A DNA stretch of 64,000 nt. It comes from a virus. The position numbers and the translations under genes were made by a program. The notes under the pieces are model-generated. The model had not been told where the DNA came from, did no database searches, and saw only the letters and a list, made by a program, of their open reading frames with translations. This document shows, piece after piece, positions 12,185 through 64,000 of this stretch (positions are counted from its first letter, which is position 1; the number at the start of each line of letters is the position of its first letter). The stretch lies in the IMG/VR virus record IMGVR_UViG_3300029305_002985, positions 68,092-132,091 of that record; one strand, 5' to 3'.

Positions 12185-13354
12185 ATGGACGAATATTTAG
12201 ATGATCTCTTGCCCGATGATGTAGACGAAGTGGCTCCTGAAACGGAACAAGAGATACTTGAAGAAAAAATGGCGGCGATCGATGCTCCATTAAAGTTAGA
12301 CTATAAACTAACTGACATTAATGATCGCGTCGCTCTTGTAGATAAAATAATTGCGGCGACCCCTAAGGAGAAATTAACCAACAGATACCTGGAGTATCTT
12401 GGCGACTATATTATGTAGGCAATCACCAAAGAAGAGCGCAAACAGCATCTATTCATGACAGACAATCGCCGCGTTACAATTGACAAGCGTGAGACCTCGC
12501 TTGAAGGTCTAATCGAGAAATTTGAGAACGGCGCCGATGGCATCTATAATATGATGACCAATGATAAAAATATTATCATGACGCCAAAAGTAGAGATTAC
12601 TGAACAGGATATTGCGGAGGTACCAGGTCTACGCGAATTGCGCGAAGCCATTAATGTCGTAGAGCAATAGTATAAGGCGGCAACCGGCAAACGCAAATAT
12701 GCATTAAAGAAACAGCTAATAGAAATGAGGCGCGACCAGTATGTGCTTAAAGGAATGTTTAAGCAGACAACAAAGGCGGCGCCTTGTTCGCGTGGAATCA
12801 ACAAAGTTGACCTTTGGGAAGAGCGTTGGATTGATGCAGCGGGCGAGCCATAGAGTAAAGGTCTAGTTACATTTTTTAATCCTGACCATGTGGCGGCGAT
12901 CCTGCGAAATTACAACGGTTTAAAATTAGAAACTGCGGGCCAATATTGGAATGACTTTTTTTATTTGATATAGGACTTTGATGGATTAATTCACAGAGCA
13001 TTAAAATATCAATAGCCGCTTCTTTGGGATTTAATGCAAATGAAGTTCCAAGGTAAGCAAAACATAGAAATTGCGGCCGCCCTTAAAGAGAAACATGGCA
13101 AGTCTTATACGCCAGAATATATCTCTTAGTTATGGGGGAAGAAAATTCCGAAGCTTATTTCTGAGCAAGAGAAGAATGATTATTTAATTCAATATTACTC
13201 CACGATTGCGCCGGAGAAAGCAAAGTGGAAGAAATGTTCAAAATGTGGACAAATTAAATTAGCTCATAATAGATTTTTTTCAAAGAATAATACCTCCAAA
13301 GATGGGTGGTACAGCCAGTGCAAATGCTGTAGAAATTCTAAAGGAAGGAGCTGA
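12185..13354 (+). CDS. hypothetical protein, about 389 aa, acidic N-terminus and C-terminal Cys-rich zinc-ribbon; first gene containing sense TAG codons
   Basis: ORF-track fragments 12185-12418 and 12455-12670 are in the same frame, as is everything up to the TGA at 13352-13354. In-frame TAGs at 12416, 12668, 12851, 12971, 13010 and 13127. C-terminus CSKCGQIKLAHNRFF...DGWYSQCKCC. Confidence 0.55.
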
Positions 13355-13359
13355 TTATT

Positions 13360-14589
13360 ATGGCTCAAACATATTGTGAAAAATGTAAACATACTATGGA
13401 TGAAGCTAACTTCTATACATATAAAGATGGTAGTAAAACCGAGCTATGTAAGAAGTGCCTTACAATGCACATAGATATGTTTAATCCTGAAACCTTTATG
13501 TGGGTTTTGGAAAAAATGGACGTGCCCTATGTCCCCGCGGAATGGGACTCGTTGCGCGATAAAGATATTGAAAAGAAAGGTATTAAGGCGACTGCTAGCG
13601 CGGTGTTCGGTAAATACCTGTCTAAAATGAAACTTAAACAATGGAAAGAATACGGATGGGCGGACACCGAGAGACTTCAAGCGGAGAGTGCGGAAAAGGC
13701 GGCGATCCGTGCAGAAGAGTAGGCAGCTAAAGACGCCTATTACTAGGAACAGCTGGATGCAGGCGCTATTAGTGAAGCGCAATACAAGACGCTAGTGAGC
13801 GGCAAGACGCAGCTCGACCGCGCTTATAATCAAGTTGCCACTGGACAGTATTTAGGAAATGATAATCCTTATAATGAAAACTTTTTTATGAACGAGTCAG
13901 AGCTCGCGGATCCGGGAGCTGAGCTGACGCAAGAAGATAAGGTTTACCTTGCTATGAAGTGGGGTCGCCTTTATAAGCCCGGTGAGTGGGTTGAACTTGA
14001 GCGCATGTATACGGAAATGACAAATTCGTTTGATATTCAAGATGCTGACTCTGAGGCAACACTGATTTTACTTTGCAAAACTAACTTAAAACAAAATCAA
14101 GCTATCGACTCTGGCGATATTGAAGGCTTCCAGAAATTATCTAAAGTCTCTGAATCTTTGCGTAAGACCGCTAAATTTACTGCGGCCCAGAACAAAGAAG
14201 CAAAAGGAGACTTCGTTGACTCTGTAGGTGAGCTTATCCGCCTTTGCGAAACAGAGGGCTTCATTCCTCGTTTCTGCACAGATATTCCACAGGATAAAGT
14301 AGATCTTACTCTCGCTGACCAAAAGGAATATATCCGTAAGCTTGTAACGCAAGACCTGGGCTTTGGCCAACAGATCGAAGATGCTATTAAGAAGATTCAG
14401 ATCCAAAAGGAAATGAATGAGGCGGCAGACCGTGCGCGCGAAGAAGCGGGCGATAACTATATTGATCCTATTGATGAAATAGATGATGAGGATATGGCAG
14501 CATTCTTTGAAGAGAAGGCTGCGCAAAGCGATCAAGATGAGTCGCTGTTTAAGGACGGTGATAAATCCTTATGGCCTTAGCAGACTTAA
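13360..14589 (+). CDS. putative DNA-packaging / small-terminase-like protein with N-terminal zinc ribbon, about 409 aa
   Basis: CEKCKH...CKKC at the N-terminus. The TAA at 14587-14589 overlaps the terminase ATG (TAATG). In-frame TAGs at 13720, 13747 and 14578. Functional assignment rests on position only. Confidence 0.4.
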
Positions 14590-16310
14590 TGGAATTGTCC
14601 CAATCTAAGGGGCAAAAGAAAATTGGATTATCAGAAGAACGCGTTAGGGCGGCGTTGCCAGTAGTGCGGCAATACGTCGCCTATTGGCGCGAGTATCCTG
14701 ATATGTTTGTGGAATTTTTGTGCGGCGATAATAAAGAAAACTTTTAGCTGTTTTTCTATCAGCGCCTATTCTTGCGCGCCGTTATGCGCCATAGATATGC
14801 GTATGCAACTTTCCCCCGTGCTTACTCTAAATCATTCTTATCAGTGCTTGTGTTAATGTTGCGCTGTGTGCTTTATCCTGGGTCTAAGTTATTCGTAACG
14901 ACTGGTGGTAAGGAACAGGCGGCAGGCATTGCTAAAGAAAAATCAGACGAGCTTTGTAAACTTATTCCAGGTTTGGCAAATGAGCTAGACTTGACAAGAG
15001 GTAAAACTAAAACTAGTAAAGATAATATTGAGCTTATTTTTAAAAATGGATCTAAGCTAGATATCATGGCGGCAAGGCAGTCTTCGCGTGGTCGTCGTGC
15101 AACAGGCGGTCTAATGGAGGAATGTATCCTTATCGATCAAACGCTATTGAATGAAGTTATTATTCCTACAATGAACGTTGACCGTAGATTGGCGGACGGC
15201 ACATGGCAGGAAAAAGAAACAGTTAATAAATCGCAGATTTATGTCACTACCGCGGGTTGGAAAAACAGTTTTGCTTATGAGAAACTTATTCAATTGCTTA
15301 TTCAGTCTATTATCGACCCGAGTGAAGCGATTGTTATGGGCGGCTCTTGGCGCGTTCCGGTTATGGAGAAGCTGCTTAAAAAGTCATTCATTGAAGAACT
15401 TAAGCTCGATGGAACTTATAACGATAGCTCCTTCGCGCGTGAGTATGAATCAGAATGGAGCGGCGATGCGGAGAACGCATACTTCTCAGCTGAAAAGTTT
15501 GATAAACATAGACAGCTATTGCAGCCTGAATACTAGTATAGCGAGCGTAGCTCTAAGAGCGCATATTATGTACTAGGCGTCGACGTAGGTCGTAAGGGTT
15601 GTACCACAGAGTGTGTCGTTATTAAGGTGACGCCGCAGGCCCAGGGTTCGGCGCTTAAGACTATCGTTAACATCTATACCTGGGACGAAGAGCACTTTGA
15701 GCAGCAGGCTATTAACCTTAAGCGCTTGTTCTACAAGTATCGTGCGCGCGCTATTGCGATTGACGCCAACGGTCTTGGTATTGGTCTTATTGACTTCATG
15801 GTGAAGAATCAAACCGATCCAGAAACAAATGAATTGCTCCCAAATTTTGGAGTTGAGAATGATGATGAAGGATTTTATAAAAAATATAAGGACGGAGACA
15901 CCGAAATAGATGCTATGTATCTAATCAAGGCCAATGCGCCCATTAACACCGAGGCGCACACCTACGTGCAGACTCAGCTTAGTAGTGGCAGAATTAAGTT
16001 CTTGATTGATGAGAACCAGGCTAAGGTTAAGTTAATGAGCACAAAGATGGGTTAGTCTATGGATAACAGCAAACGAGCTGATTATCTGATGCCCTTTACA
16101 CAGACGACTATTCTGCGTGAGCAGATGCTGAATCTTGTAGAAGAGAACGAGGGTGTTAATATTATCCTTAAGCAATCTTCTCGTAGTATCAAGAAGGATA
16201 AATTCTCCGCTTTTGAATATGGCTTATATTATGTAAAGCAAGATGAAGATAGAAAGCGCAAGAAGAAAAAGCGTAATATTAGTGAGATGATGTTTTTCAC
16301 TTCTAACTAA
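14589..16310 (+). CDS. terL: terminase large subunit, about 573 aa
   Basis: Fragments 14589-, 14772-15536, 15627-16055 and 16059-16310 are all in frame 0 and separated only by TAGs at 14745, 15534 and 16056. N-terminal ATPase region; C-terminal RNase-H-like nuclease motif YVLGVDVGRKG...AIAIDANGLGIG. Confidence 0.8.
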
Positions 16311-16385
16311 AAATTTTTAAGGACATTTTTGATAAATATGATTAACTTAATTTTTATATATATACAGTGAAGGAGGATTGGTATA

Positions 16386-16742
16386 ATGAGAGCTTCTAGA
16401 GGCGAGATAAAAGTCGCAGAGATACTCACTGAAGCCGGTTTGTCTTTTACCGAAGAATATTCTTTCCCGGACTTGTTAGGTCATACCGGACGCCCGCTCC
16501 GCTTTGATTTTGCTGTGTTCGATGATGATGGTGAACTTGATTTCTTAATTGAATACCAAGGTATCCAGCATTACGAGCCCAAGTCAAAATTCGGCGGCAT
16601 AGCAGGTTTACGCCAACAGCAGTATTATGATATGCAAAAACGCGAATATTGTAAGAAACATGGAATCATCCTTGTTGCAATACCTTACTTTGACGATCCG
16701 CGCCTAAACTATGACTACATAATGCATGCGGCCGGCTATTAA
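16386..16742 (+). CDS. DUF559/Vsr-like PD-(D/E)xK endonuclease; free-standing homing-endonuclease-like gene
   Basis: RPLRFDFAVFDDDGELDFLIEYQGIQHY...K resembles the E-x-D/Q-G-x-H core of Vsr/DUF559 nucleases. No TAG codon. RBS GAAGGAGG. Inserted between terL and portal. Confidence 0.55.
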   Translation: MRASRGEIKVAEILTEAGLSFTEEYSFPDLLGHTGRPLRFDFAVFDDDGELDFLIEYQGIQHYEPKSKFGGIAGLRQQQYYDMQKREYCKKHGIILVAIPYFDDPRLNYDYIMHAAGY

Positions 16743-16852
16743 GTTTAGTATGAGTTGACTTGACCGAAAATTTTTCGTATAATAAGAGAGAAAGAAAAGA
16801 GGTGCATATCTTGATCAATCGAAGAGAAGAGATTAAAGCAAAGGGTTTTAAA

Positions 16853-18391
16853 ATGACTCTTTCTAATAGCACCACAGATGCTGCTGAGCGTTCTATGACC
16901 GATTTTTCAAAAATTAAAGTCGGTTTGAAAACTTTAGAGGACGCGGTTATTGAGTTAGGTGATTATCGCAAAGCTAATCCGCGTCTCTCTGATAAAGCTG
17001 CTATTCTTCAAGCCATTAATAATAACGATATTGTGACAATGAGAGAGGTTTCCGCCTTTTTCTATCGCATCAGTGGTATTTATTCAAGACTTGTTAAGCA
17101 CTTGAGTAATTTCTATCGTTACGATTGGTTGCTTACCCCTTTTGTTCCTGAGTCAACTAAAATGACTCCAGAACGAATTATTGAGCAAACTAATCGTGGT
17201 CTTAATGCCCTTGATGAATTTCAAGTAAAAAGATATTTCGGCCGAGTGGCGCGAGAGGTCTTAATTAAGGGTTGCTACTATGGATATCGTATCCAGAATG
17301 GCGATTCTTATCAAGTTCAAGAGCTTCCGCAAAACTATTGCCGCAGTAGATTTAGCGTTAAAGGTAAGCCAGCAGTTGAGTTCCACATGAAGTTTTTTGA
17401 TGATCATTTTAAAGATGGTGAGCAAAAAATTAATGTGTTGAACTTATTCCCTAAAGAGTTTAGACAAGGCTACATTAAATATAAAAATGGAGAGTTGCCG
17501 CCTGCTTTTAAGGGAGATACTTCTGGCTGGTATTTATTAGATATTAATAGCACCGTAAAGTTTAATATTGGCGGCGTTGACTATCCATTATTTATGTCAG
17601 TTATTCCTCATATTATTGACTTGGATGCGGCACAAGATTTGGATAGAAAAAAGATGCAGCAAAAATTGTTAAAGATTATTATTCAAAAAATGCCACTCGA
17701 TAAGAATGGCGATTTAGTATTTGATGTTGACGAAGCGCAGGAATTGCATAATAATGCGGTTAAGATGCTAGGTAAGGCCATCGGTATTGATGTGCTTACT
17801 ACTTTTGCAGAAGTAGATGTTGCGGACTTAGCTGATAAGTCAAGCGTAACTTCTATTGATGAACTTGAGAAAGTAGAGCGCACAGTTTATAACGAATCAG
17901 GTACTGCTCAAAACTTATTCAACACAGATGGTAATATCGCTCTTGAAAAATCTATTCTTGACGATGAGGCAAGTTTGTATGATTTGATTTTACAATTCCA
18001 AGACTTTTTAAACGAGCTATTGGAACCCTTTAACAAGAACCCTAAGAAATTTTATCTTAGAGCACAAATTCTACCAACTACTATTTATAATTATAAAGAT
18101 ATGTCTAAATTATATAAAGAACATACTCAGCTTGGATATTCTAAGATGCTGCCGCAGGTGGCGCTTGGACAATCTCAAAGCACGATCTTGGCAACCGCTA
18201 AGTTTGAAAATGAGATTCTTGATTTGGTCAATGTCTTTATTCCCCCTATGTCTTCGAATACAATGAACTCTGATTCGTTGAAAAATCGCGGCAAGGGGTC
18301 AGATGGTGAAGAGAAGAAGGCAGGTCGTAAGGAAAAAGCTGACGACGAAAAATCAGAAAAGACCATCAAAAACAAAGAAAGTATGAACTAA
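16853..18391 (+). CDS. portal protein (by position, size and acidic C-terminus), about 512 aa
   Basis: Continuous ORF, no TAG, directly after terL. Start chosen at ATG 16853 (MTLSNS); the ORF-track version begins at an upstream TTG. Confidence 0.6.
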   Translation: MTLSNSTTDAAERSMTDFSKIKVGLKTLEDAVIELGDYRKANPRLSDKAAILQAINNNDIVTMREVSAFFYRISGIYSRLVKHLSNFYRYDWLLTPFVPESTKMTPERIIEQTNRGLNALDEFQVKRYFGRVAREVLIKGCYYGYRIQNGDSYQVQELPQNYCRSRFSVKGKPAVEFHMKFFDDHFKDGEQKINVLNLFPKEFRQGYIKYKNGELPPAFKGDTSGWYLLDINSTVKFNIGGVDYPLFMSVIPHIIDLDAAQDLDRKKMQQKLLKIIIQKMPLDKNGDLVFDVDEAQELHNNAVKMLGKAIGIDVLTTFAEVDVADLADKSSVTSIDELEKVERTVYNESGTAQNLFNTDGNIALEKSILDDEASLYDLILQFQDFLNELLEPFNKNPKKFYLRAQILPTTIYNYKDMSKLYKEHTQLGYSKMLPQVALGQSQSTILATAKFENEILDLVNVFIPPMSSNTMNSDSLKNRGKGSDGEEKKAGRKEKADDEKSEKTIKNKESMN

Positions 18392-18406
18392 GGAGAGGAG
18401 AAACCG

Positions 18407-19816
18407 ATGAATAAATCAGTTCAAACGATAAACTCTCCAGAGTTTATCAATTTACAACCCTTAGATATCAACCCATTAATGAGCGCTTGTGAGATTAAAG
18501 TTCTTTATGTAGGCGGCAACCGCAATGGTTCCTTTATTACAAAAGAAGTTGCAACCGATATGGCCAAGACTCTTCGTGGTGCGCCTATTGTAGGTTATTA
18601 CCGCAAAGATGTTGAAGATTTTGGTGATCACGGTCAACGCGTAATCATCGATGGTGATGGTATCAAATTCGAGTGCTTAACCGTTCCTTATGGTTTTGTA
18701 GCACCCGATGCCAAAGTTTGGTTCCAAGAATTTGAAGATACCAATGACTTTGGCGAAAAAACTGTGAGAGAATATCTAATGACTACTGGTTTCTTGTGGA
18801 CGGGTCAGTTCCCGGAGTGCAAGTCGGCAGTAGAGGGCGAAGGCAAGCCGCACTCTATGGAGCTTGATGAAGCATCTTTGGATGGACACTGGGCTAGAGA
18901 TACCAAAGGCATGGATTTCTTTATTATAAATGACGCAACATTTTCGAAGCTGTGCATTCTTGGCACCGATGTGGAACCTTGTTTCGAAGGTTCAAGCGTG
19001 AAGGCTCCTGAAGTTAGCGCGTCTTTTGCTAAGGTAGATGATGCCTTTAAGCAAACATTATTTAGCATGATGCGAGATTTACAATTCGCATTACAAGGAG
19101 GTCAGCAAATGGACGACACAACTATCGTAGTTGAGACTCCTGTTGTAGATCCTGCGGCCGAGCCTGTGACTGAGCCAGCAACGGAACCCGTTGCAGAACC
19201 AGCTACTGAGCCAGTGGCAGAACCTGCGCAAGAGCCCACTACAGACGATGGTCAGGGCGCCCCTGCTGCAATCGAGGATCCTGTTCCCGCAGAGCCTGCA
19301 CAAGAGCCTGCTGAGCCTCAGGACCCCGTGACTGAGCCCGCCGCAGAGCCTGCAACAGAACCTGTTGTTGAGCCTACCGCAGAGCCAGTTGCCGAGCCTG
19401 CTCCTCAAGAGCCTGATCAATATGCGCAGTTAGAGGCTGCTCATGCTGAACTTCAAGCTCAGTATGACGAGCTTTCTGCTCAATTTACTGCCCTTCAGGC
19501 AACCAACGAGTCGCTTACCGCGCAAATCGCTGGTTTAACAGAGTATCGCGCTCGCATCGAAAATGCAGAAAAGGACGCAATGATTAAAAAGTTCTACATG
19601 TTGTCTGACGAAGACAAGCAAGATATTGTGGCAAACAAGGCACAATACACTGTAGAAGAAATTGAAGAAAAGCTTTCTGTGCTTTGCTTCAGAAAACAAG
19701 TTAGCTTTGGCAAAGAGCCTGAGCAACAGCCTGTTGTTACCTTTAATCTTGGTGACTTGGGCGCTTCTCAACCCGCATGGCTTTCTGCGGTTGAAAATTA
19801 TAAGAAAAATAATTAA
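18407..19816 (+). CDS. scaffolding protein (possibly with an N-terminal prohead-protease-like domain), proline-rich EP(A/V)TEP(A/V) repeats and C-terminal coiled coil
   Basis: Tandem repeats EPVTEPATEPVAEPATEPVAEP in the middle. The C-terminus QLEAAHAELQAQYDELSAQFTALQATNESL is heptad-like. Sits between portal and capsid. Confidence 0.55.
   Translation: MNKSVQTINSPEFINLQPLDINPLMSACEIKVLYVGGNRNGSFITKEVATDMAKTLRGAPIVGYYRKDVEDFGDHGQRVIIDGDGIKFECLTVPYGFVAPDAKVWFQEFEDTNDFGEKTVREYLMTTGFLWTGQFPECKSAVEGEGKPHSMELDEASLDGHWARDTKGMDFFIINDATFSKLCILGTDVEPCFEGSSVKAPEVSASFAKVDDAFKQTLFSMMRDLQFALQGGQQMDDTTIVVETPVVDPAAEPVTEPATEPVAEPATEPVAEPAQEPTTDDGQGAPAAIEDPVPAEPAQEPAEPQDPVTEPAAEPATEPVVEPTAEPVAEPAPQEPDQYAQLEAAHAELQAQYDELSAQFTALQATNESLTAQIAGLTEYRARIENAEKDAMIKKFYMLSDEDKQDIVANKAQYTVEEIEEKLSVLCFRKQVSFGKEPEQQPVVTFNLGDLGASQPAWLSAVENYKKNN
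19140..19410 (+). repeat. tandem 12/15-nt repeats encoding the (T/A)EP(V/A) linker
   Basis: Repeated gagcc(t/a)g(t/c)(g/t)... units seen directly in the sequence. Confidence 0.5.
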
Positions 19817-19830
19817 GGAGGACTTAAGAA

Positions 19831-20337
19831 ATGGCTTTAATTAAGCGTATCGGTTATGGTCAGGTTGAGCCTAACCACCTTTCCGCTCAAAGAAATGGTC
19901 AAGTTTACGGTCAGCTTCCTGCTGCTGCAGACATTGAGGTTCTTGAGAATGGTCAGTTCGTAAAGTATAACTATGCTGAAGGTGTTTGTGACTTCGCAGG
20001 CGCCGGCGAGTGGATGCTCGTTCTTAATGAAGTAAAATTATATGACAGCTTCTGGAGAGAGTCTTACAAGGACTTCGCTATGAAGAAAGCTGATTATAAC
20101 AAGGGTGTTATGACTCCCCGTGTTATGAAGACTATGCCTGGTGACATCTTCACTACTAACTGCATTGCTGGCAGCGAGACTGATGCTGGCGTTGAGATCG
20201 CAGTTAAGGATGTGCTTGGCATCAACGCTAAGGGCTATCTTGAGAAGGATGCCGCTGGCGATATCCAATTCCAAGTTGTAAAAGTATACACTATGCCTGA
20301 CGGCCAACCCGGCGTTAAGGTTATGCGTATTAAGTAA
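19831..20337 (+). CDS. hypothetical head protein (decoration or auxiliary), 168 aa
   Basis: TAG-free ORF with RBS AAGGAGG, immediately upstream of the major capsid gene. Confidence 0.45.
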   Translation: MALIKRIGYGQVEPNHLSAQRNGQVYGQLPAAADIEVLENGQFVKYNYAEGVCDFAGAGEWMLVLNEVKLYDSFWRESYKDFAMKKADYNKGVMTPRVMKTMPGDIFTTNCIAGSETDAGVEIAVKDVLGINAKGYLEKDAAGDIQFQVVKVYTMPDGQPGVKVMRIK

Positions 20338-20354
20338 TAAAGGAGGACTGAATA

Positions 20355-21410
20355 ATGGCACTTGATAGAGCAAATCTTCACACATTAGGTAAGACTCTTG
20401 CCAGAGCTAAGGCCTCTGCACCTACTGCTTACTCTTTTGGTGAGAATAAATACAGCTATGCTGATCTTGACGGCACTTTCCGTCAGGAGTTAAATGAGCT
20501 CGTTGGCACTTATGCGCTTTACCGCGCTAATAAGAACGCTATGTTCGAGCTTTTCGAGGAAGTTATCACTGATGTGCTTCCTATTAAGGTTATGGAGCAA
20601 TATGGCGCTTTCGCTGAAATTAAGTCTTATCGTCAAGGCGAGCGTCCTGTGTTCGTTCAAAAGATCACTGAGGCTTCTAAGCGTCGTGCTAAGCAATTCG
20701 TGACTAAGGTTGGTCTTGCTGGCCGTTACGAAATCTTCAAGCTTGATGGTCGTAGCTACGAAGTAACAACTTCTGCTTACGGCGCTGCTTGCCAGATTTC
20801 TATCGAGGAGTTCCTTGATGGCCGCATTGACTTCGCTACTCTTCTTGACATCATGCTTGAGGGCTTTGATGAGGCTATTTACCGTGAGATCGCTGCTGCT
20901 CTGATCGGTTCGGTTGAGTCTCTTCAAGCTGGCAACAAGTTCGTTGGTTCTAGCTTCATCGAGGAAGAAATGGACGAGCTTCTTGCAGTTGCTGATGCTT
21001 ATGGTAGCGGTCGTTCAACAATCTACTGCACATTCGAATTCGCTTCTCAAATGCTTCCTGAGAACGGTTGGGTTTCTGACTCCATGAAGGATCAGGTCTG
21101 GGCAAATGGTTACCTTGCTAACTACAAGAACCACCAGGTTATCGTTCTTCGTCAGTCTTACACCGACACTGATAACCTTCACAAGGTGATCGATCCTTCT
21201 TACGCTTGGATTATTCCTGGCGGCGCTGAGAAGCCGATCAAGATCGCTTTCGAGGGTGACACTCTTATGAAGGAAATTGAGAGCCAGGATGACTGGTCTC
21301 GCGACCTTCAAATGTACAAGAAGATCGGCGTTGCCGCAATCGTGTACAACGACATCTGCGTATATCAAAACACATCTCTTAAGATGGATCGCGACGTAGA
21401 CGGCGAATAA
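20355..21410 (+). CDS. major capsid protein (HK97-fold size class), 351 aa
   Basis: TAG-free, strong RBS AAAGGAGG, followed by a strong terminator. Position is after the scaffold gene. Confidence 0.65.
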   Translation: MALDRANLHTLGKTLARAKASAPTAYSFGENKYSYADLDGTFRQELNELVGTYALYRANKNAMFELFEEVITDVLPIKVMEQYGAFAEIKSYRQGERPVFVQKITEASKRRAKQFVTKVGLAGRYEIFKLDGRSYEVTTSAYGAACQISIEEFLDGRIDFATLLDIMLEGFDEAIYREIAAALIGSVESLQAGNKFVGSSFIEEEMDELLAVADAYGSGRSTIYCTFEFASQMLPENGWVSDSMKDQVWANGYLANYKNHQVIVLRQSYTDTDNLHKVIDPSYAWIIPGGAEKPIKIAFEGDTLMKEIESQDDWSRDLQMYKKIGVAAIVYNDICVYQNTSLKMDRDVDGE

Positions 21411-26172: not shown

Positions 26173-27108
26173 ATGCAATTCGGTATTCGCGAAATTTGTG
26201 ATGTTGTTTTTAAGGCTAAAAATGCCGGCTCTCTTGGTTCTTTTAATTATGTTGCAGGTCAGCCTGTTCTTTACATCGACAGCGCTAAGACTTCTACCAT
26301 GGAGGGCGCCGCTACCACTGTTTATGCTCAGGGTGGTAAGGGCAATGCGCGTTTAATTGCTTGGGAAGGTGAGAGAACTCTTACTTTCACAGTTGAAGAT
26401 GCGCTTCTTTCTGAGCTTGGTTTCGCAATTCTTTCTGGTGCTGGCATTCTTAAGGCTGGCGCAGGCAAGACTGTTTATGTTCATACTACTGCTACTCAAG
26501 TAGTTGGCACAGACGGCACTATTGATTTAACGGATGCTCTTGGAGCAAATGAAAAGATCGACGACAACTCTCCTGTCTTTGCAATGGTAATGAGCCAAGG
26601 TTCTATTGAATCTATGCTTAGTGGACTTGAGGTTGATGCAACAGGTAAGAAGCTTACTGGTGCAATTAAAGCTGGTACGGTTAACGGAGAGGAAGTTGCA
26701 AATATTTATGCAGGTAAAACTGTGTTTGTTGATTTCTATGTTGCTAAGACCGAGGGCGTTACAGAGATGAGCATTGACATGGAGAACTTTGCTGGTTACT
26801 ACTATGTTGAAGCATCTACTCTTTTCCGTCGTCAATCTGATGGTAAAGATCTTCCTGCCGAGCTTATCTTCCCCAATGTTAAGATTCAGTCTAACTTTAC
26901 CTTTACGATGGCAGCAACTGGCGACCCTTCTACTTTCACCTTCACAATGGATGCTATGCCTGGCTATACTCGTTTCGACCGCACTAAGAAAGTGCTTTGC
27001 GTAATGCAGGTTGTTGACGAGAGTGCCGCTACCGCAGATGATGAAGTTGATTCAACTAGCACAACTGCTGATGGTGAACTTAAGTATCCTATCGTTGATG
27101 CTGACTAA
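26173..27108 (+). CDS. major tail (tube) protein, 311 aa
   Basis: TAG-free, strong RBS AAGGAGG, followed by a terminator. Located upstream of the chaperone-like genes and the tape measure. Confidence 0.55.
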   Translation: MQFGIREICDVVFKAKNAGSLGSFNYVAGQPVLYIDSAKTSTMEGAATTVYAQGGKGNARLIAWEGERTLTFTVEDALLSELGFAILSGAGILKAGAGKTVYVHTTATQVVGTDGTIDLTDALGANEKIDDNSPVFAMVMSQGSIESMLSGLEVDATGKKLTGAIKAGTVNGEEVANIYAGKTVFVDFYVAKTEGVTEMSIDMENFAGYYYVEASTLFRRQSDGKDLPAELIFPNVKIQSNFTFTMAATGDPSTFTFTMDAMPGYTRFDRTKKVLCVMQVVDESAATADDEVDSTSTTADGELKYPIVDAD

Positions 27109-27164: not shown

Positions 27165-28169
27165 ATGCATACAAATATTGCTAAGACACTTACAAAAACG
27201 ATTGTAGAAGAGCATCCCGCGTTATTTATGGCGGAGTTCAAAAGCATATTAGAGCCATTAAAAAATTCTTTGGAGGTATATTGTAGAGAAGTTTCTCAAT
27301 TAAGGGATTAGTTAAGTCAATATCCTATACAAACAGCATAGCCATAGAAACATGATAAGGAAAGTTATCAAGCTCGTGCGATCGAAGTGCGCGACATTAG
27401 AAATAAAATTAAAGAAGCTAGTTTTGATATACGCAGAATGTTATTAGATGGATATAAATTAATTTAGTTGACAAGAGAAGTATTAACAGGATAGCAAATA
27501 GATTATTAGATTGGTTTTGAACTAGGACGCGGAAAAAATAAAAAGTTTTATAATGGTAAGACCTCCATGGAAGAAATTCTTAAAAATGCAAAAATTAGTT
27601 TAGCCGCAACCCAAAAAGGAGGAACTCTAGATTATGTATTAAAGGTTGCAAATAAAACAACTTTAATTGCTTAGGGTATTACAGTGACAGAAGCTAATTC
27701 TGATCAAACTAATTTATTATCAAGAATTAAGGTTTACAGTCAAAGAAGCCATATGAAACTTAATAATGGACATATTTATGAAATTTATGCAAATTTTGAT
27801 AAAAATGGTAATTATTCTCCTAGTACGCAATAGCTGCGTCATATGGCAAAGACAGTGCTGTCAAACACAGATAAGTTTTATCATAAAGGCGATATTGATT
27901 TAACACAGATAAAAGGCTTATTGGGTTCAAATCCTTCTATTGTAAATTTTTCAAGTATTTTTTTAGCGGTATAGGCTTTATATAAAATTATTAAAGATCT
28001 ATGTGATATGAAGATTTCAGAGACAGAGGCTTACGCAATGTTACAAAGTTTCTTTCATTTTGATCAAAAAATTGGAGATGTTAGTCAAGATGTTGTAAAA
28101 ATGGCGGTAGATGAAATTAAAACCTTATTTAAGAATTTGCCAAATAACTATTATATTAATACGACTTGA
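27165..28169 (+). CDS. hypothetical protein between tail tube and tape measure, about 334 aa, many sense TAGs
   Basis: Frame 0 is continuous from ATG 27165 (RBS TAGGAGG) to TGA 28167-28169. Confidence 0.45.
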
Positions 28170-28881: not shown

Positions 28882-31800
28882 ATGGCTAAACAAGGAAATA
28901 TTAAATTTGGTGTTTCTTTTGACATTGATTAGAAAAGATTGACTGAATTAAAAACTTCCTTATCAAAATTATCTTCTATTAGTCAATTTGATTTAATTAA
29001 ACCAGATAAAGATATTGCTGATTTAAGACGTATTCAAGACACTGCGAAACAAGTTGGAGTAGCTTTATAGTCAAGTTTTAATAAAGATTTAGGAACTTAT
29101 AATATCTAGACTTTTAGAAATAATTTAACTGCATCGAATTTAGATATTGCCACTATTGGTAAGACATTTGCTTAGGCAGGAGAAAAAGGAAATATTGCTT
29201 TTAGAAATATGATTTAGGCTATTTCTAAAACCAAATTTGAACTTAAAGAGTCTCATGGTATCCTTGATAAAATGAGAGAAACTTTAACCAATACCTTACG
29301 ATGGACTATTGCTTCAAAAGCAATTAATAGTGTAACTGGCTCAATTCAAAAAGCTTGGGGTTTTACAAAGCAACTAGATGCTTCTTTAACAGATATTATG
29401 ATTGTTACAGGAAAAAGCTCTAGCGAAATGGAAAAGTTTGCAAAACAGGCAAACAAAGCTGCTAAGGCTATTGGTGGCACGACAAAAGAATACACTGATG
29501 CAGCATTGATTTATTATCAATAGGGTTTAAATGATCAAGAGGTGGCTGCAAGAACAGAAACCACTGTAAAAGTTGCAAATATTACAGACCAGGGCACAAA
29601 AGAAGTCTCTGAACAATTGACAGCTGTATGGAATGGTTATAAAGTATCTGCTCAAGAAGCGGAGAGCTATATTGATAAACTTGCCGCTGTTGCATCTACC
29701 ACTGCCGCAGACCTGGAAGAATTGTCTACTGGTATGAGCAGAGTTGCGTCCGCCGCAAATATTATGGGCGTTGATATTGACCAATTAAATGCTCAACTTG
29801 CTACTATTGTATCTGTTACAAGAGAAGCTCCTGAATCTATTGGTACAGCACTTAAAACAGTTTATGCTCGTATGAGTGATATTGAAGCAGGTATTGATTC
29901 TGAAACCACTCTTGGTGAATATACTTCTCAAATGGCAGAAATGGGTATTAATGTACTCAATGCCCAAGGCAATCTAAGAGATATGGGCGATGTAGTTGAA
30001 GAAATTGGTGGTAAATGGAACACTTTAAATCGTGAATAGTAGGTTTCTTTGGCTCAGTCTATTGCAGGTACAAGACAGTATTCTCGTATGATGGCCTTAT
30101 TTGATAATTGGGATATGTATTAGGAGGCTCTTACTACTTCATAGTCTTCTATTGGTACTGTAGCTTAGCAAAACAGTATTTATATGGATTCATTAGATGC
30201 AAAACTAGAAAGCTTAACTGCTAGTGCAGAAAAGCTTTATATGCAACTATTTGATTCAGATAGTTTTAAATCTTTAATTGAAACAGTTGCCACATTAGTT
30301 GATGGTATTAGTAGTTTTGTAGAAGGATTAGGTGGAGGCGGGAATTTATTATTAATGCTTACCCCGTTATTAACTAATTTATTTAGTAAAACTATTGGTC
30401 AAGGACTTTCTTCTACCCTAATAAATTTAGTAAATGCTAAAACGCGAGCTCAAGAAATGTCTGCCAGCCTCATTGAAATGAGGTCTTTGCTTAAAGACAT
30501 AGGGGATGGAACTGAAATTGATCCTTTATCAGTAAAATTTTTAAAGATTTAGGAACATTTAAAAACGCTTTATTAGCAAGGAATGCTAACAAAAGAAGAA
30601 TTTGAATAGCTTAGTAACACTGCATCAACAGCAATAGACGACGCAAATCAAGCGTCTGCGTTAAGAGCTGAGCGATAGAATATTGATAGCAAAGTTGCTG
30701 TAGGAGGCGGACTTTCATTAGAAGCAATTGCTCAAGAAAGAGACGCAGGAAATCTTGAAAAAGTTGCAACAATGCAACGAGACTATGCAACTGAAGTTGA
30801 CGCAAAAACAACTATGTTTGAAGATACCTATCAACATTATAATGAAGACTTGGCACAAATTGATTCAACCGATACTGAACAAATAAAAAAATATATTGAT
30901 CAATTACGACAAGAAATTGAAAATGTTGGTGTTATTTCTGATGAGGACGAGGCACAAATTGAAGCTAGCTTATAGGCGGCAGAGCAAGAGCTAGAAATCA
31001 TGAATAAAAAGAAAAATGCTTTAAAAGAAATTCAAGAGTTACAAGCATAGAATAGGCAAATTGCTGAAGATGCAGGCACTTATGATCCTAATGAAATGGA
31101 TGCAAGTACTGCTGGATTATTAGAAGCTAATGGTCAAAGAATATAGGCATTACAACAAGAAGCAGATAGTTATGGTGATCTTGAAAAAAGAGGAACCTAG
31201 GCTATTTTACGCATTGAAGGCGCAAATGGTCGAGCTCTTAAAGGAATAGAGACAGGTAGTAAAAGAGTTAAGGCTGCAGCTAAACAAGCAGGATCAGGAT
31301 TAGAATCTGAATTGGATAAACGAAGCAAAAATGCTGTTAATAAAATAGAAAAAAATTTTAATAAATTAGATTTAGCTTCGTCAATTAAAACATTTACTAA
31401 TGTAGCCGGCGCGGCAATGGGAGTAATTTCTGCTTTTCAAACTTTAAAGGGTATTGGCAATATTTGGGATAACGATGATCTAACAACAGGTGAAAAAGTT
31501 ACTTAGACATTTACAACTATTCTTTCTACTGCGCTAATGCTTATTCCTACTTTAACCAGTGTTATTGGAGGTTTGGTCGGAAAAGCAAAAGCAATGGTTG
31601 CAAGCGCTGCAGCAGCCGCCGCCGATGCAGCTGCGACTGGTACAGCAACAGGTGCCACTCTGTCTTTTGGTGCGGCATTGTGGGCTACTATTTGGCCTAT
31701 TTTAGCAGTAGTTGCGGCAATCGGCGCCTTAGTTGCTATTGTTGCATTAGTAGCTTATGCATTAGATGCAGATTCGCGCGCAGCCAAAGAAGCAGCAGAA

Positions 31801-36356: not shown

Positions 36357-36390
36357 GGCGGCGATCAGATAATGATCGCCGCCCTTTAGA
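36357..36390 (+). terminator. hairpin terminator after the tape measure gene
   Basis: ggcggcgatc-agataat-gatcgccgcc followed by ctttag. Confidence 0.45.
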
Positions 36391-36393
36391 AGC

Positions 36394-36422
36394 TTGACTT
36401 TTGACAAAAAACAAAATATAAT
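36394..36422 (+). promoter_or_regulatory. sigmaA-type promoter TTGACT-17-TATAAT
   Basis: TTGACTtttgacaaaaaacaaaaTATAAT. Confidence 0.5.
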
Positions 36423-36453
36423 ATATAAAAAGAGATAAAAGGAGGTTGGATAA

Positions 36454-43194: not shown

Positions 43195-43704
43195 ATGGCA
43201 AGATATAAAGGTATATTTAAAACCTCGAATAATTACGAGCCATAGGTTGCCGGACCTTTTGACGCGAGAATGCTCGTATAGCTCAAGTCTGATTTGACTA
43301 CTAAAGCAACTTGGGCACAAACTGACGGCAGCGTATGGACGTATGCGGGAATGATTGTGGCGGTCGCCGCAGATACTCCCGAAAACAATGGCGTTTATAT
43401 GCTATTGGTGAAGGATTATTCTATTGAAAGCAATTGGCGTAAGTTTGCCGATATAATTGATGTAGAAGACCTTCAAAGACAAATTGATAGTATTGAATTA
43501 ACTGGCGGCGGCAGCCTCGATGTAGAGGTTGAGACAGAAGCTGAACTTCCTGCCACTGGTGATGAAAATACAACTTATTATGTAAAAAATGACAAAAGTA
43601 TCCAGCGTTGGGATGAAGAAGCCCAGGATTATATTTCCTATGGTGGAGCTCCCGCAGTGGATATAACAATTATAAATGGAGGAAATGCAAATGGCACAGA
43701 TTAA
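43195..43704 (+). CDS. hypothetical tail protein, about 169 aa
   Basis: RBS TAAGGAGG. TAGs near 43243 and 43279 are read as sense. Confidence 0.5.
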
Positions 43705-45100
43705 TACGAGAATTGTATTAAGAAATGACACTAAGGCCAATTGGGAGTTAGTAAAAGATACTGCTACTCTTAAGGTTGGCGAAATGGGCATTGAAACCGA
43801 TACTGGTTTATTTAAAATTGGTAAGCAAAAGGTAAATGCAGAGGGCGTGCTTCAGTTTGAAGCAGACGGCAAAACCCCTGTTCTCTGCACTTGGGCCGAG
43901 CTTTCCTATGCTAATGATCTTTCTACTGTAACCAATGGTGTTCAAGTTATTGATGGTACTGTCGAAGATCTTGAAGACGGCGTTGTTGTGGGCGATATGG
44001 CAATCGTTCGCTCCGTGATCAATGGTGACATCAAATCTCACACTGCTTACGTGTGGAATGGCACTGCATGGGCAGCAATGGATGGTAATTATTCCGCTGC
44101 AAATGTATTCCTTCCCTCTGAGATTGTACTCGCAGGTGATTATGGCCAGGTGTATGATACTGCTGATAAGAAATATTATGACATCACAAGTCTTGGCAAC
44201 TATCGCAAGGGCGATGTGATTGATGCTGGTACATCTATCGAGGATGTATTCTCTGCCTTATTCACCAAGGAAATTTCTACTGATCTTCAAAATACTAAGC
44301 CTAGCACTTCGATCACTGCTACTAAGAATACTTATCTCTTAGTTGGCGCCAATTCTACTGCACAGACTGTAACTCTTTCTCTTAGCAAAGGCGCTTATGA
44401 CAATGGTTATGGTTATGTCGCTAGTAAGAATGAGACTGGTATCGAAGCCGGCACAAAGGCTGTTACTGTTGTGACTAACGACGGTACTGGCGCAGAGGCT
44501 TCTAAATATTATGTAAATGGTGTGGAGCAATCTGGCAACACCTACTCCGTTGCTTCTACTAAGAAGACAACGGCTCCTTCTGCTGAAACTATTAAGGCTA
44601 AGATTTCTTATGTGAACTGCGGCCACCCCGTATCTAACCTTAAGAATATCTATCCTGCTCAGAAATACGCTGATGGCACTACTGATGAAGCAAGCGCAAC
44701 CCTGAACATGTGGTATTATCCTATTTACCAGGGCTTCACTTATGCTGATGATGCAGTTGCTGATCATGCAAATGTTACAGCTAGTAAATTACAGGCTCTT
44801 GGCGCACCTCAGTCTGGTAGTACAAATACTAATGCTACTATTACTGGCTCTACTGCTTACAATAAGACAAAGATGACCAAGGCTGTTGCTAAGAAGGCTT
44901 GGAGACAATATTACATCGCATATCCTAAAACTTATGGCTACACAATGAGTAAGGCAAAGGATGCTAACAACATTGACTGCACTGTAAGAGAGGCTGCTGA
45001 TGTTACCATGACTTTCAATGGCGTAGATGTTGTCTACAAGGTTTACTACATTCACAATGGTTCTGACTATGGTACAACTACCATTACTTGGACAATGTAA
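43691..45100 (+). CDS. tail fibre / receptor-binding protein 1, conserved N-terminal fibre anchor domain, about 469 aa
   Basis: N-terminus MAQINTRIVLRNDTKANWELVKDTATLKVGEMGIETDTGLFKIGKQK matches the conserved N-terminal fold shared by Gram-positive phage fibres and hyaluronidase-type fibres (ETDTG...K.GDG). TAG-free. Confidence 0.6.
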   Translation: MAQINTRIVLRNDTKANWELVKDTATLKVGEMGIETDTGLFKIGKQKVNAEGVLQFEADGKTPVLCTWAELSYANDLSTVTNGVQVIDGTVEDLEDGVVVGDMAIVRSVINGDIKSHTAYVWNGTAWAAMDGNYSAANVFLPSEIVLAGDYGQVYDTADKKYYDITSLGNYRKGDVIDAGTSIEDVFSALFTKEISTDLQNTKPSTSITATKNTYLLVGANSTAQTVTLSLSKGAYDNGYGYVASKNETGIEAGTKAVTVVTNDGTGAEASKYYVNGVEQSGNTYSVASTKKTTAPSAETIKAKISYVNCGHPVSNLKNIYPAQKYADGTTDEASATLNMWYYPIYQGFTYADDAVADHANVTASKLQALGAPQSGSTNTNATITGSTAYNKTKMTKAVAKKAWRQYYIAYPKTYGYTMSKAKDANNIDCTVREAADVTMTFNGVDVVYKVYYIHNGSDYGTTTITWTM

Positions 45101-49944: not shown

Positions 49945-50006
49945 TCTAATAAATAATGCGATAGGCCTAGGTTAAGCTGCTTCACCTGGGTCCCGCGCCT
50001 AAAGAC

Positions 50007-50035
50007 TTGACAAAAGTCAAAACTTTTCATACAAT
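50007..50035 (+). promoter_or_regulatory. sigmaA-type promoter TTGACA-17-TACAAT followed by a 9-bp stem hairpin (50049-50075) in the leader
   Basis: TTGACAaaagtcaaaacttttcaTACAAT, then ggttgggcc-tggaatgat-ggcccaacc. Confidence 0.45.
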
Positions 50036-50120
50036 TAAATAAGAGACGGGTTGGGCCTGGAATGATGGCCCAACCTAGTCCCCGAAAATTTGGAATGATA
50101 ATTTTAAAGGAGGACATGAT

Positions 50121-57402: not shown

Positions 57403-57493
57403 CATAAGGACAACTTTATATAATCCTCTTAATCTAATTTTTATATTATAATGTGAAACGATAATAACCTTTAGAAAGGAGGAGTAAATCTAA

Positions 57494-58017
57494 TGACATC
57501 ACTTTTAACAACATATACTATTACAACTGTTGTATTAGTTTTATGTGTATGCATTCCTATGATTATTAAGGGAGTGACATGGATTGTTAATCTTATTAAG
57601 AAACATAAATCCAATTAGCAAGAAGCTTTTGAAGCAGGTTATGAAGCCGCAGAAGAAGATGAAGCAATAGAAGAACGCTTTTGTGAAGGCGAAGAGTTTA
57701 TGCAAAAACTTGAAAAGCGTGAAACGGATTTGGAATAGATTATGAAAGATTAGCAAGAATAGATTGGGCTTTTGCGCCAAGAGATTAAGAATTTGTCTGA
57801 GTCTGACAATTTAAATATTAAACACGATATAAAGAAAGCTTGGGTTAGAGTGGTTTAGCTCGGCCATTCTATTGACTACCAAGATTTAGAAGTGTTAAAT
57901 GCACGCTTTGCTATCTATGCTGCACGAGGCGGCAATAGTTGGGCAAAAACAATGATGGAAGAAATCAACAAAAGGGCTACAATTACTAGCCCATATAATC
58001 AAGAGCAGGATAAATAA
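57494..58017 (+). CDS. membrane-anchored coiled-coil protein, about 174 aa
   Basis: N-terminal TM segment TTVVLVLCVCIPMIIKGVTWIVNLI followed by an acidic, coiled-coil-like region. Sense TAGs present. Confidence 0.45.
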
Positions 58018-61163: not shown

Positions 61164-61165
61164 TA

Positions 61166-61257: not shown

Positions 61258-61284
61258 CCTCATCATCTTGATGAGGATTTTTTA
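61258..61284 (+). terminator. second terminator hairpin
   Basis: cctcatca-tct-tgatgagg followed by attttttag. Confidence 0.5.
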
Positions 61285-61400
61285 GTTCTCCTGCTAAATT
61301 TACAAACTTTAATAAAAGTTAGGTAAATTTTAATTAAAGTTATTTATTTAATTTTCATATAATATTGCCAAAGTAAAAATCCAAAAGAAAAGGAGATATT

Positions 61401-61865: not shown

Positions 61866-61881
61866 GTAAAGGAGATTAACT

Positions 61882-62130
61882 ATGCCTTATAATGTAAATC
61901 CAATGGAATTAATTATGCAAATTAAGCAAGGCAAAAACCCTCAAGAATTAATGCTTGGCATTCTTGAGACTGGCGCCTCGCAAAACCCTATTTATGCTAA
62001 TCTCTTGCAGCTCGCGAAAGACGGCCGCACCGCCGATATCGAAGCCTTTGCGCGCAATGTAGCAAAAGAAAAGGGCATTGATTTTGATAAAGAATTTAGT
62101 AGGTTCAAAAAGCAGTATTTTGGCCTCTAA
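61882..62130 (+). CDS. hypothetical protein, 82 aa
   Basis: TAG-free. RBS TAAAGGAG. Confidence 0.5.
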   Translation: MPYNVNPMELIMQIKQGKNPQELMLGILETGASQNPIYANLLQLAKDGRTADIEAFARNVAKEKGIDFDKEFSRFKKQYFGL

Positions 62131-62162
62131 TTCTAAATAAATTATAAAGGAGGACATATAAT

Positions 62163-62960: not shown

Positions 62961-62988
62961 TTAACGAAGAATGGAGGCTTGAAAAAGA

Positions 62989-63408
62989 ATGGAATTAATT
63001 GCTAATGCAGTTCAGACAGTGGCGGCAACCGCCAATGTGCAATTTACTGACGAAGTAGTTAGTGGTTGCAATTCGATTCTCCATAGAGCCGGAAGTGGTC
63101 TTGTGACCTTGCGCGGTATTACTAACTAGTGCCGCGCAAGATTTAAGGCTTTCTTTAGCGGCAACATTGCAATTCCTGAGGGCGGCACAGTAGAGCCTAT
63201 CTCTTTAGCTATTGCTCTTAATGGAGAAGCTATCGCATCAACAACAATGATTCAGACTCCGGCCGCAGTTGGCGAATTTGCTAATGTGGCAAGCGCCGTA
63301 TATATCGACGTTCCCGCCGGATGCTGCATCACCGTAAGCGTGCGCAACACCAGTCCCGATGATATTGATGTGCAAAACGCAAACTTAATTATTGAAAGGG
63401 TGGCGTAA
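62989..63408 (+). CDS. hypothetical protein, about 139 aa, one sense TAG at 63124
   Basis: Frame 1 from ATG 62989 to TAA 63406-63408. Confidence 0.45.
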
Positions 63409-63410
63409 TT

Positions 63411-64000
63411 ATGGAAAAGTTAAAGCAAATGAAAGAGGCTCTCGTTGGATGCGTTGAGGGCCAAGTGTTCGGAAATCTTAAGGATGTCGACGCAAAAGAA
63501 CTCGGCGAAGCTATGGATATGATTAAAGACTTATCCGAGGCTATCTACTATTGCACAATAACAGAGGCAATGGAGGGTGAGAAACATGGCGAAAAATCAG
63601 GTAAAGGCCAGCATGGGATGATGTACTACAAAGAGAGTATGACTCCTATGTACCACTATCCTTACCCAGTAGAATATTATGATCCCAGATACAGAACTAA
63701 TTATTCTATGTATGAGCGCGGCAACCAAGGCGGAAATGGCGATAGTGGTTCCCGCCACTATCAAGACGGTATGATGGATTATACCATGTATGAAAGCGGC
63801 AATGCAGGGACTGGTCATGCACAGGCTATGCGCGGCTATCGTGATGGTATGGTGATTCAGCCTATGGAGCGCGATCCTAAAGAAGGACGCAGTGGCGAGC
63901 GCCGCAGAATGTATATGAGTGGTAAGGGCATGAAAGATAAGACTTCTCAGATGAAAGAGCTTGAAGCTTATATGCAAGAGCTTACTTCTGATATGACTGA
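63411..64000 (+). CDS. hypothetical Met/Tyr/Gly-rich protein (3' end beyond the window)
   Basis: MEKLKQMKEALVGCVEGQ...MMYYKESMTPMYHYPYPVEYYDPRYR.... No stop codon before the window end. Confidence 0.45.
   Translation, partial: MEKLKQMKEALVGCVEGQVFGNLKDVDAKELGEAMDMIKDLSEAIYYCTITEAMEGEKHGEKSGKGQHGMMYYKESMTPMYHYPYPVEYYDPRYRTNYSMYERGNQGGNGDSGSRHYQDGMMDYTMYESGNAGTGHAQAMRGYRDGMVIQPMERDPKEGRSGERRRMYMSGKGMKDKTSQMKELEAYMQELTSDMT

Follow-up and report, generated by a model that had tools for sequence, protein, structure and literature searches.

In-frame TAG codons read as sense, most probably as glutamine, in the late genes of an SPbeta-like gut siphovirus

What does TAG mean in a phage whose virion genes stay open only if that codon is not a stop, and why do its early genes do without it? 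These questions are raised by a 64,000-nucleotide stretch of the IMG/VR record IMGVR_UViG_3300029305_002985 (positions 68,092 to 132,091; hereafter the window, numbered from its first letter), which holds a minus-strand early block and a plus-strand late (virion) module. From its sequence and that of its relatives we are highly confident that the window represents 64 kb of the ~139-kb genome of an SPbeta-like siphovirus of the animal or human gut (or rumen), in which TAG is a sense codon, most probably for glutamine (Gln), as in genetic code 15. A first-pass annotation had proposed just such a code-15-like phage, with a late module that needs TAG as sense and early genes readable in an unmodified host, and our results support that proposal. 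A phage code change of this kind is already well documented and its principle is published (10.1101/2021.08.26.457843; PMC10607447). The window offers a clean, well-delimited amber reassignment in a Bacillota-type (SPbeta-like) phage, in which a dozen consensus host promoters set the early region apart independently.

Once stops are restricted to TAA and TGA, positions 12185 to 64000 of the plus strand are tiled by 38 closely packed genes with 16,741 codons in total. The module and the recoded genes on which the argument leans most are as follows (aa, amino acids).

12185–64000, plus strand: late (virion) module, 38 genes, 153 in-frame TAGs in 24 of them, stops TAA (31) and TGA (6)
12185–13354, plus strand: g1, opening gene of the module, 389 aa with 6 TAGs, PHROG "sigma factor" (phrog_5767)
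14571–16310, plus strand: large terminase (TerL), 579 aa, TAGs at 14745, 15534 and 16053, terminase families matched
28882–36345, plus strand: tape measure (g19), 2,487 aa, 42 TAGs, eleven tape-measure families matched
36454–41829, plus strand: large tail protein (g20), 1,791 aa, 34 TAGs, which make up 51% of its Gln-type codons

Read in this way, the 38 genes contain 153 in-frame TAGs and not one in-frame TAA or TGA, and the 37 that are complete all end with TAA or TGA. Off frame, the same genes hold 577 TAG, 1,238 TGA and 1,299 TAA triplets. TAG accounts for 0.9% of late codons and for 22% of the Gln-type codons of the late genes overall. For the tape measure, with an off-frame rate of TAA plus TGA of 0.081 per codon, a run of 2,487 codons lacking both would arise by chance with a probability of ~6e-92. 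The TAG-separated fragments of each gene all share one frame, and the essential conserved genes are interrupted by TAG only and become full-length once it is read as sense; their homologs in 56 related standard-code loci are uninterrupted. Re-prediction with TAG as sense yielded single long open reading frames (ORFs), and PHROG profile matches to terminase, sigma-like, tape-measure and structural families extend across the TAG positions. The first-pass annotation was therefore correct that TAG is a sense codon through the plus-strand late module, that late genes end with TAA or TGA alone and that the terminase carries three TAGs. Its figures for the tape measure (more than 50 TAGs) and for the large tail protein (more than 40, in 1,790 aa) were too high.

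The window is 100% identical to contigs built independently by JGI, ENA and Logan from many samples and with several assemblers, which excludes assembly error as the source of the TAGs. The ENA gene calls already give the full-length products (796, 334, 333, 297 aa and more), which shows that code 15 is in use for this DNA in some public pipelines. On identical DNA, JGI calls made under the standard code break the late genes (loci L081 and L323) and ENA calls leave them whole (L083 and L326), an illustration of how such genomes are shattered by standard-code annotation.

The other side of the partition lies to the left of the late module, where homology assigns the coding strand of 1–12026 to the minus strand.

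507–10778, minus strand: early block of ~24 small genes, no in-frame TAG and no TAG stop
944–10868, minus strand: twelve perfect TTGACA-17-(TG)nTATAAT promoters, all on this strand, 0.08 expected by chance
1773–1775, minus strand: early-gene TAG, codon 13 of an ORF starting at ATG 1811, with AAGGAG and then ATG 1754 downstream
11274–12026, minus strand: class-3 lipase gene, TAG-free, with a strong hairpin terminator at 11262–11231

The 25 minus-strand genes counted here (2,597 codons) contain 58 CAA or CAG codons and no TAG, an absence with P = 5e-7 at the late-gene rate. The earlier statement that neither the minus-strand early genes, with one exception at 1773–1775, nor the lipase gene needs TAG readthrough was borne out. 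A plus-strand ORF at 8362–9954 (531 aa, 3 TAGs) was considered and set aside as an antisense shadow, since the minus-frame ORFs are much better conserved (78% identity, 4e-54, against 50%, 5e-33) and purine skews favour the minus strand. Most of the twelve promoters have an extended −10 element (TGTGGTATAAT) plus an A-rich upstream stretch, and their longer common consensus comprises an A-rich upstream stretch, CTTGACAAAC and ATGTGGTATAAT. Elsewhere in the 82-kb composite of window and flanks, perfect matches number just three. The promoters thus mark, independently of the TAG pattern, a block that would be transcribed by the unmodified host polymerase.

Flanking sequence was added to the left (9.5 kb) and to the right (9 kb) of the window. 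Genes for dUTPase, NrdG, NrdD, guanylate kinase and DnaE lie on the right-hand side, and DnaE, NrdD and other replication-side flank genes are intact under standard-code calls. The 57 public non-late gene calls end with TAA (38) or TGA (19), so that TAG is never a stop, with 0 of 57 non-late and 0 of 37 late genes using it; in homologous genes it terminates 17% in standard-code relatives and 26% in TGA-recoded relatives. Nor is there any sense TAG over the ~7,600 codons of the non-late standard-code public calls, save the codon at 1773–1775, which lies upstream of the called start. Because TAG is absent from the early block in both its sense and its stop role, the block is code-neutral, that is, readable under either code. 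The earlier claim that this block "uses the standard code" therefore holds as far as its freedom from TAG and its readability in an unmodified host are concerned; the standard code as such is not demonstrated, TAG never being a stop there either. TAG-free early genes would be a requirement for a phage whose code changes mid-infection.

To which residue TAG corresponds was addressed with ~240 related IMG/VR loci fetched around TerL, tail tube and DnaE. Of the related loci, with sister lineages of other codes among L001–L172, 56 have no in-frame stop, 54 have in-frame TAG only and 47 in-frame TGA only, and TerL identity to the window spans 60–84% across all three code states. In the TGA-recoded relatives TGA faces tryptophan (Trp) 448 times. 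The guanine-plus-cytosine (GC) fraction of TerL-centred loci is 0.27–0.31 in the TGA lineage and 0.34–0.42 in the TAG lineage. Related contigs placed in bins of metagenome-assembled genomes fall mostly with Bacillota (Eubacteriales, Lachnospiraceae, Bacilli), and the hosts are probably Bacillota, binning of phage contigs being weak host evidence. In some TAG-recoded relatives (L247, L255, L259 and L274), genes upstream of dnaE hold 5–10 in-frame TAGs each, so not every member of the family confines TAG to the virion module.

Columns in which at least one of 80 TerL homologs carries TAG are for the most part invariantly Gln (64, 116, 222, 356, 379, 414, 469 and 495). Conversely, the window residue that faces TAG codons of relatives is Gln 542 times, lysine (Lys) 169 times and glutamate (Glu) 168 times. 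At the alignable TAG sites of the window (38–47, according to the coverage threshold applied), Gln exceeded Glu by 22 nats in a Codetta-like likelihood and Lys by 14 nats in a comparison with empirical substitution profiles. With Glu and Lys thus 14–22 nats lower, we rejected residues other than Gln. The tape measure contains a tandem TAG-TAG (30037–30042), the first of which aligns to Gln in 52 of 56 relatives. Gln is thus the best-supported reading of TAG from these alignments. The first-pass annotation had assumed it by analogy; it now stands as the best fit, with a minority of window sites facing Glu, Lys, tyrosine (Tyr) or serine (Ser). The frequency of TAG (0.9% of codons) and its Gln-like substitution profile argue against pyrrolysine. 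Code 15 has been demonstrated by metaproteomics in crAss-like phages, the only ones for which peptide proof of Gln at TAG is reported (PMC9523058).

These observations can be combined into a model of infection. Host RNA polymerase would fire the twelve minus-strand consensus promoters, and because neither the early genes nor the replication genes outside the window contain any TAG, the host ribosome could translate both. Read-through of TAG is needed by 24 of the 38 plus-strand genes, among them sigma-like g1, terminase, neck, tape-measure and tail/baseplate genes, so that full-length late products would follow only once a TAG-decoding activity had appeared. We infer that this activity is a phage suppressor transfer RNA, tRNA(CUA), possibly aided by interference with release factor 1 (RF1), and that it would build up after early expression. 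TAG is avoided in the virion proteins made in greatest amount (capsid and tail tube, joined in this phage by the portal and the scaffold-like protein), probably because a suppressed codon is decoded more slowly or with more leakage than an ordinary one. The head operon (portal to capsid), with a near-consensus promoter upstream at ~16760 and a hairpin downstream at ~21430, could be translated regardless of the code switch.

Several findings weigh against this model or against its Gln assignment. The window, its 18.5 kb of flanks, 49 kb of a TAG-recoded relative and the other related loci yielded neither a suppressor tRNA nor a gene for a release factor or an aminoacyl-tRNA synthetase. Near-consensus sigma-70-like promoters lie within the late module itself (12100–12150, 16755–16790, 36390–36425 and 50005–50040), and late operons may therefore need no phage-specific polymerase factor. 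One early gene does carry a TAG, that at 1773–1775, aligned to Lys or arginine in the N-terminal "TKKERF" motif of its homologs. A perfect promoter directly precedes this gene as read from ATG 1811, and either its long form would be made only after the code switch, with a short form possible before it, or its start has shifted downstream. Finally, window TAGs occupy columns conserved in relatives as Glu (TerL 322), Tyr (g1 277) and Ser (g1 315), where Gln would be a non-conservative change. Each of these three residues has codons one nucleotide away from TAG, and conserved non-Gln columns are no commoner among TAG sites (3 of 38) than among ordinary Gln codons (11 of 245); in the Lak phage literature, TAG is aligned to Glu as well. 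The late module also contains GC-rich hairpin terminators at ~21430, 27130, 36360, 47840, 57375 and 61170.

The distribution of TAG among late genes bears on the purpose of the reassignment, and the following genes are informative.

16853–18391, plus strand: portal protein, phrog_2739, 0 TAG here, TAG/Gln share 0.23 in TAG-recoded relatives
18407–19816, plus strand: g6, YonD_N family, coiled coil, weak scaffold-like match, 0 TAG
20355–21410, plus strand: g8, major capsid protein, YonB family, HK97 fold, 0 TAG
26173–27108, plus strand: g16, tail tube, Pfam YomU_Tube, 0 TAG, fold like SPR/SPbeta-type tube proteins
27165–28169, plus strand: g17, 334 aa, 9 TAGs (2.7% of codons)
57493–58017, plus strand: g31, 174 aa, 5 TAGs (2.9% of codons), hydrophobic N-terminal stretch

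The share of TAG among Gln-type codons is 0% in the g4–g9 block, the tail tube and several other genes and reaches 30–51% in the tape measure, g20, g17, g10 and g31. In g4–g9, which includes the portal, scaffold-like g6, g7 and capsid g8, none of the 83 Gln codons is TAG (P ~1e-9). Codon counts agree with the first-pass observation that portal, g6, capsid and tail tube are TAG-free here. Its description of the tape measure and fibres as TAG-dense applies to the tape measure (42) and the 1,791-aa protein (34); the other large tail proteins have 2–5 TAGs each. Across the family, the tail tube has no TAG in 12,732 codons of 47 TAG-recoded relatives and no TGA in the TGA-recoded ones. TAG/Gln shares in the TAG-recoded relatives are 0.019 for the capsid protein, 0.010 for g7 and 0.004 for g9, and the TGA/Trp shares in the TGA lineage are 0.01, 0 and 0.20 (4 TGA), respectively. 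Portal, terminase, neck proteins and tape measure have shares of 0.17–0.47 in the TAG-recoded relatives, and the TAG-free portal is specific to this phage.

That TAG and TGA lineages avoid the reassigned codon in the same genes points to selection beyond drift alone, and this convergent avoidance in the most abundant virion proteins supports the reading that reassigned codons are costly. At the same time, gene GC correlates negatively with TAG density (Spearman −0.48) and with the proportion of Gln codons written as TAG (−0.53), which makes mutation pressure part of the picture. The earlier suggestion that TAG density tunes expression accordingly stands in part: the capsid and tail-tube avoidance is family-wide and convergent, but the portal case is specific to this phage and density tracks low GC. 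In a 2-kb profile the window is a GC mosaic, with 0.43–0.50 in TAG-free or TAG-poor stretches (the early block, 18–22, 42–50 and 62–64 kb), 0.32–0.38 in most TAG-rich stretches (22–42 and 50–62 kb) and an intermediate 0.41–0.43 in the g1–TerL region (12–16 kb). We also considered whether the TAG-free head module was recently acquired from a standard-code phage; this is unsupported, best identities being similar across code classes. In the variant contig L327 the capsid gene is split, apparently through a local sequence error and not by a sense TAG.

The GC trend is the natural starting point for the strongest competing explanation, which accepts that TAG is reassigned and sees in its uneven spread a by-product of AT-biased mutation (CAG, GAG and AAG to TAG) under weak selection, with no timer at all; purifying selection would bar TAG from proteins that are abundant or needed early for no other reason than the inefficiency of suppression. 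Of 38 TAG sites, 32 fall in variable alignment columns, compared with 173 of 245 Gln sites encoded by CAA or CAG, and besides Gln, TAG faces its single-nucleotide neighbours Glu, Lys, Tyr and Ser. The portal, TAG-free here and not in relatives, fits the same account, and Borges et al. propose low GC and stop-codon loss as a route to recoding (10.1101/2021.08.26.457843). Mutation under weak selection is harder to reconcile with a depletion that is total over the ~7,600 early and replication codons, save 1773–1775, with a depletion boundary that coincides exactly with the strand and promoter boundary, or with the avoidance of the same genes in the TAG and TGA lineages. We regard it as a serious possibility, though a rather doubtful one; it disputes only the purpose of the recoding and leaves the recoding itself unchallenged. 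The standard, TAG-recoded and TGA-recoded sister lineages offer a natural comparison for estimating the cost of suppression and for testing the proposed late timer.

The decoding agent was sought directly. ARAGORN and Rfam at gathering thresholds found no tRNA and no other Rfam family in the window, in agreement with the first-pass annotation, and no release factor gene was found there either. The composite of window and flanks (82,454 bp) yielded no credible tRNA even with relaxed ARAGORN settings, CTA anticodons not having been specifically checked, and the nrdD neighbourhood of this genome has none. The TAG-recoded relative contig 3300037453_001206 gave no tRNA at 5.2–54.2 kb, including three walking steps, and across ~320 related loci only two tRNAs, both tRNA-Lys, were detected (ARAGORN, with Rfam on 148 kb of relatives). 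Scans of IMG/VR with flank proteins returned no relative, two metagenome scans returned nothing, and a homolog search with a flank protein reached short contigs alone. The exact tail-tube protein of the window lies on a 138,670-bp contig, from which we take the genome to be ~139 kb, with ~56 kb beyond the reach of the tRNA search; the suppressor, which the first-pass annotation placed elsewhere in the genome, may lie there.

It is conceivable that the lineage reads TAG with no canonical phage suppressor tRNA for Gln, for instance with RF1 disabled and decoding by near-cognate (Gln, Lys, Tyr or Trp) or modified host tRNAs, by a second suppressor or by a non-canonical RNA, in which case the residue would be mixed or other than Gln. 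TAG would then be graded and partly ambiguous, gating packaging, tail and lysis, and the procapsid proteins would be code-independent. The negative searches here and in 3300037453_001206 fit this idea, as do the TAGs at Glu-, Tyr- and Ser-conserved columns, and no more than 40% of the TAG-recoded genomes studied by Borges et al. had a detected TAG suppressor (10.1101/2021.08.26.457843). A distant relative, Phass-1 (phAss-1, Phassvirus, OQ749652; PMC10607447), bears on the question from both sides. It encodes 36 tRNAs, including three tRNA(CUA) genes adjoining nrdD, where the present genome has none. Two adjacent members (L254, 12442–12610; OQ749652, 62.4–62.6 kb) differ in length, ~72–75 against ~88–91 nucleotides, the longer having a long variable arm, and the pair hints at two suppressor identities in Phass-1. 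The existence of dedicated suppressors in that phage, the ~56 kb that the search did not cover, a substitution profile at TAG sites that fits Gln best and a frequency of conserved non-Gln columns no higher than at ordinary Gln codons together render decoding by other means improbable, and we continue to favour a suppressor that inserts Gln. That the code is standard and the late genes are pseudogenes, the remains of a defective phage or products of sequencing or assembly error, as their fragmentation in the JGI calls might suggest, is effectively refuted by interruptions that are solely TAG and stay in one frame, by identical sequence in many independent samples and assemblers, by the same pattern with TAG at Gln columns in 54 related loci, and by the fact that TAG never serves as a terminator.

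The features described here can be set against known recoded phages. In the code-15 gut phages (crAss-like, Lak and "gemstone" clades; 10.1101/2021.08.26.457843, PMC7886860 and PMC9523058), in-frame TAG likewise occurs chiefly in structural and late genes and is mostly missing from early and replication genes, it faces Gln (sometimes Glu) and is lost as a stop, and the timing of late and lysis genes is the proposed role of recoding (10.1101/2021.08.26.457843). The window differs in belonging to an SPbeta-like siphovirus, neither Crassvirales nor Lak, and in the lack of a detected suppressor tRNA in the 82 kb searched. Its tail tube avoids TAG, whereas that of crAss-like phages is preferentially recoded according to Borges et al. 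(10.1101/2021.08.26.457843).

By published description, the family studied here probably corresponds to the pattern of the "Agate" clade of Borges et al. Both come from animal guts (cattle, pig and tortoise for Agate) and include close relatives with standard, TGA-recoded and TAG-recoded genomes (codes 11, 4 and 15); in Agate, standard and TGA members share >80–90% nucleotide identity (10.1101/2021.08.26.457843). In both, recoding affects genes for structure and lysis and spares the replication machinery. Agate genomes are large (mean ~154 +/- 27 kb, against ~139 kb here, a comparison made by description), and two TAG-recoded members encode release factor 2 (10.1101/2021.08.26.457843). The recoded modules of Agate are spread over the genome, whereas the late module visible here is one 52-kb block.

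Phass-1 is a further point of comparison, with a ~136-kb siphovirus-like genome in which TAG is read as Gln in terminase, portal, tape-measure and fibre genes (PMC10607447). It shares with the present phage a very long tape measure, a class III ribonucleotide reductase and a TAG-free capsid homolog. Amino-acid identities to the window are 43% for TerL and 45% each for capsid and tail tube, gene order around nrdD and dnaE differs between the two genomes, and a nucleotide search limited to window positions 13342–21300 (TerL to capsid) did not match Phass-1. Since the three proposed Phassvirus species share 80–86% nucleotide identity (PMC10607447), these values would place our phage outside that genus, in another genus of the same broad lineage.

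The Pfam families that make up the virion module of the window take their names from SPbeta proteins, a link to the SPbeta-like and related large siphoviruses of Bacillota (SPbeta/SPR, Geobacillus virus E3, Enterococcus phage EF1/H1). TerL is 44–46% identical to that of Geobacillus virus E3 and Enterococcus phages, and the tube fold resembles that of SPR. The homologs of TerL, capsid and tail tube in these cultured phages align continuously, with no in-frame stop observed; the only interruption in the TerL of EF1/EF5 is a homing-endonuclease gene, and Babkin et al. describe Enterococcus phage EF1 as lacking recoding (PMC10607447). The sister lineages of the same family that read TGA as Trp (code 4) have the same genes, synteny, late-gene bias and capsid and tail-tube avoidance as the TAG lineage. 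They differ in that TGA is reassigned instead, GC is lower and TAG is kept as a true stop (26% of genes).

The assignment of the virion module to the SPbeta type follows from Pfam families and fold matches together. Precomputed Pfam hits on exact window proteins comprise YonD_N, YonB, YomW, YomV, YomU_Tube, YomO and PhageMin_Tail. In sequence searches of the local Pfam copy and the PDB, neither g1 nor the capsid and tail-tube proteins had a match. An AlphaFold model of g8 (predicted local distance difference test, pLDDT, 73) structurally matches solely HK97-fold capsid proteins and encapsulins. The g16 model, of low confidence (pLDDT 60), matches solely siphophage tail-tube proteins, with the SPR tube protein first, and was taken as support only alongside the Pfam name. 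Because Pfam names (YonB, YomU_Tube) and fold matches agree, the labels "capsid" and "tail tube" given in the first-pass annotation hold.

Two further genes of the head-proximal region complete the feature list.

13360–14589, plus strand: g2, 409 aa, phrog_3314, 3 TAGs
16386–16742, plus strand: HNH/homing-endonuclease-like gene between TerL and portal, 0 TAG here

The match of g1 to phrog_5767 covers residues 62–386 and includes all six TAGs; its Cys-rich C-terminus is HNH/Zn-ribbon-like, and the gene is recoded in TAG and in TGA relatives. In g2, the last TAG (14578–14580) lies three codons ahead of the TAA stop, within the overlap with the terminase start, and could be sense or stop alike. 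The HNH/homing-endonuclease-like gene has a TAG/Gln share of 0.28 in the TAG-recoded relatives. Two PHROG families of "unknown function", phrog_15503 (245 positions) and phrog_24618 (230 positions), each match one half of TerL, N-terminal and C-terminal respectively, and may be fragment families derived from standard-code calls on recoded phages. No homolog family was found for g17. The hydrophobic stretch of g31, judged by eye as a membrane helix, makes it a possible candidate for a lysis or membrane protein.

Several smaller observations concern gene content. In g6, a long Pro/Glu/Ala/Thr-rich repeat (…EPVAEPATEPV…) at 19100–19400 precedes the coiled coil. A TAG-free 474-aa tail protein at 43676–45100 has an N-terminal Mtd_N (major tropism determinant) domain. 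The class-3 lipase gene stands alone between the early and late modules and is unusual cargo for a phage. Precomputed Pfam hits within the early region identify a PemK/MazF-like toxin gene (7763–8110, minus strand) that overlaps an upstream 73-aa ORF (8100–8321), and a separate 157-aa protein (3317–3790, minus strand) with a MazE/AbrB-type domain.

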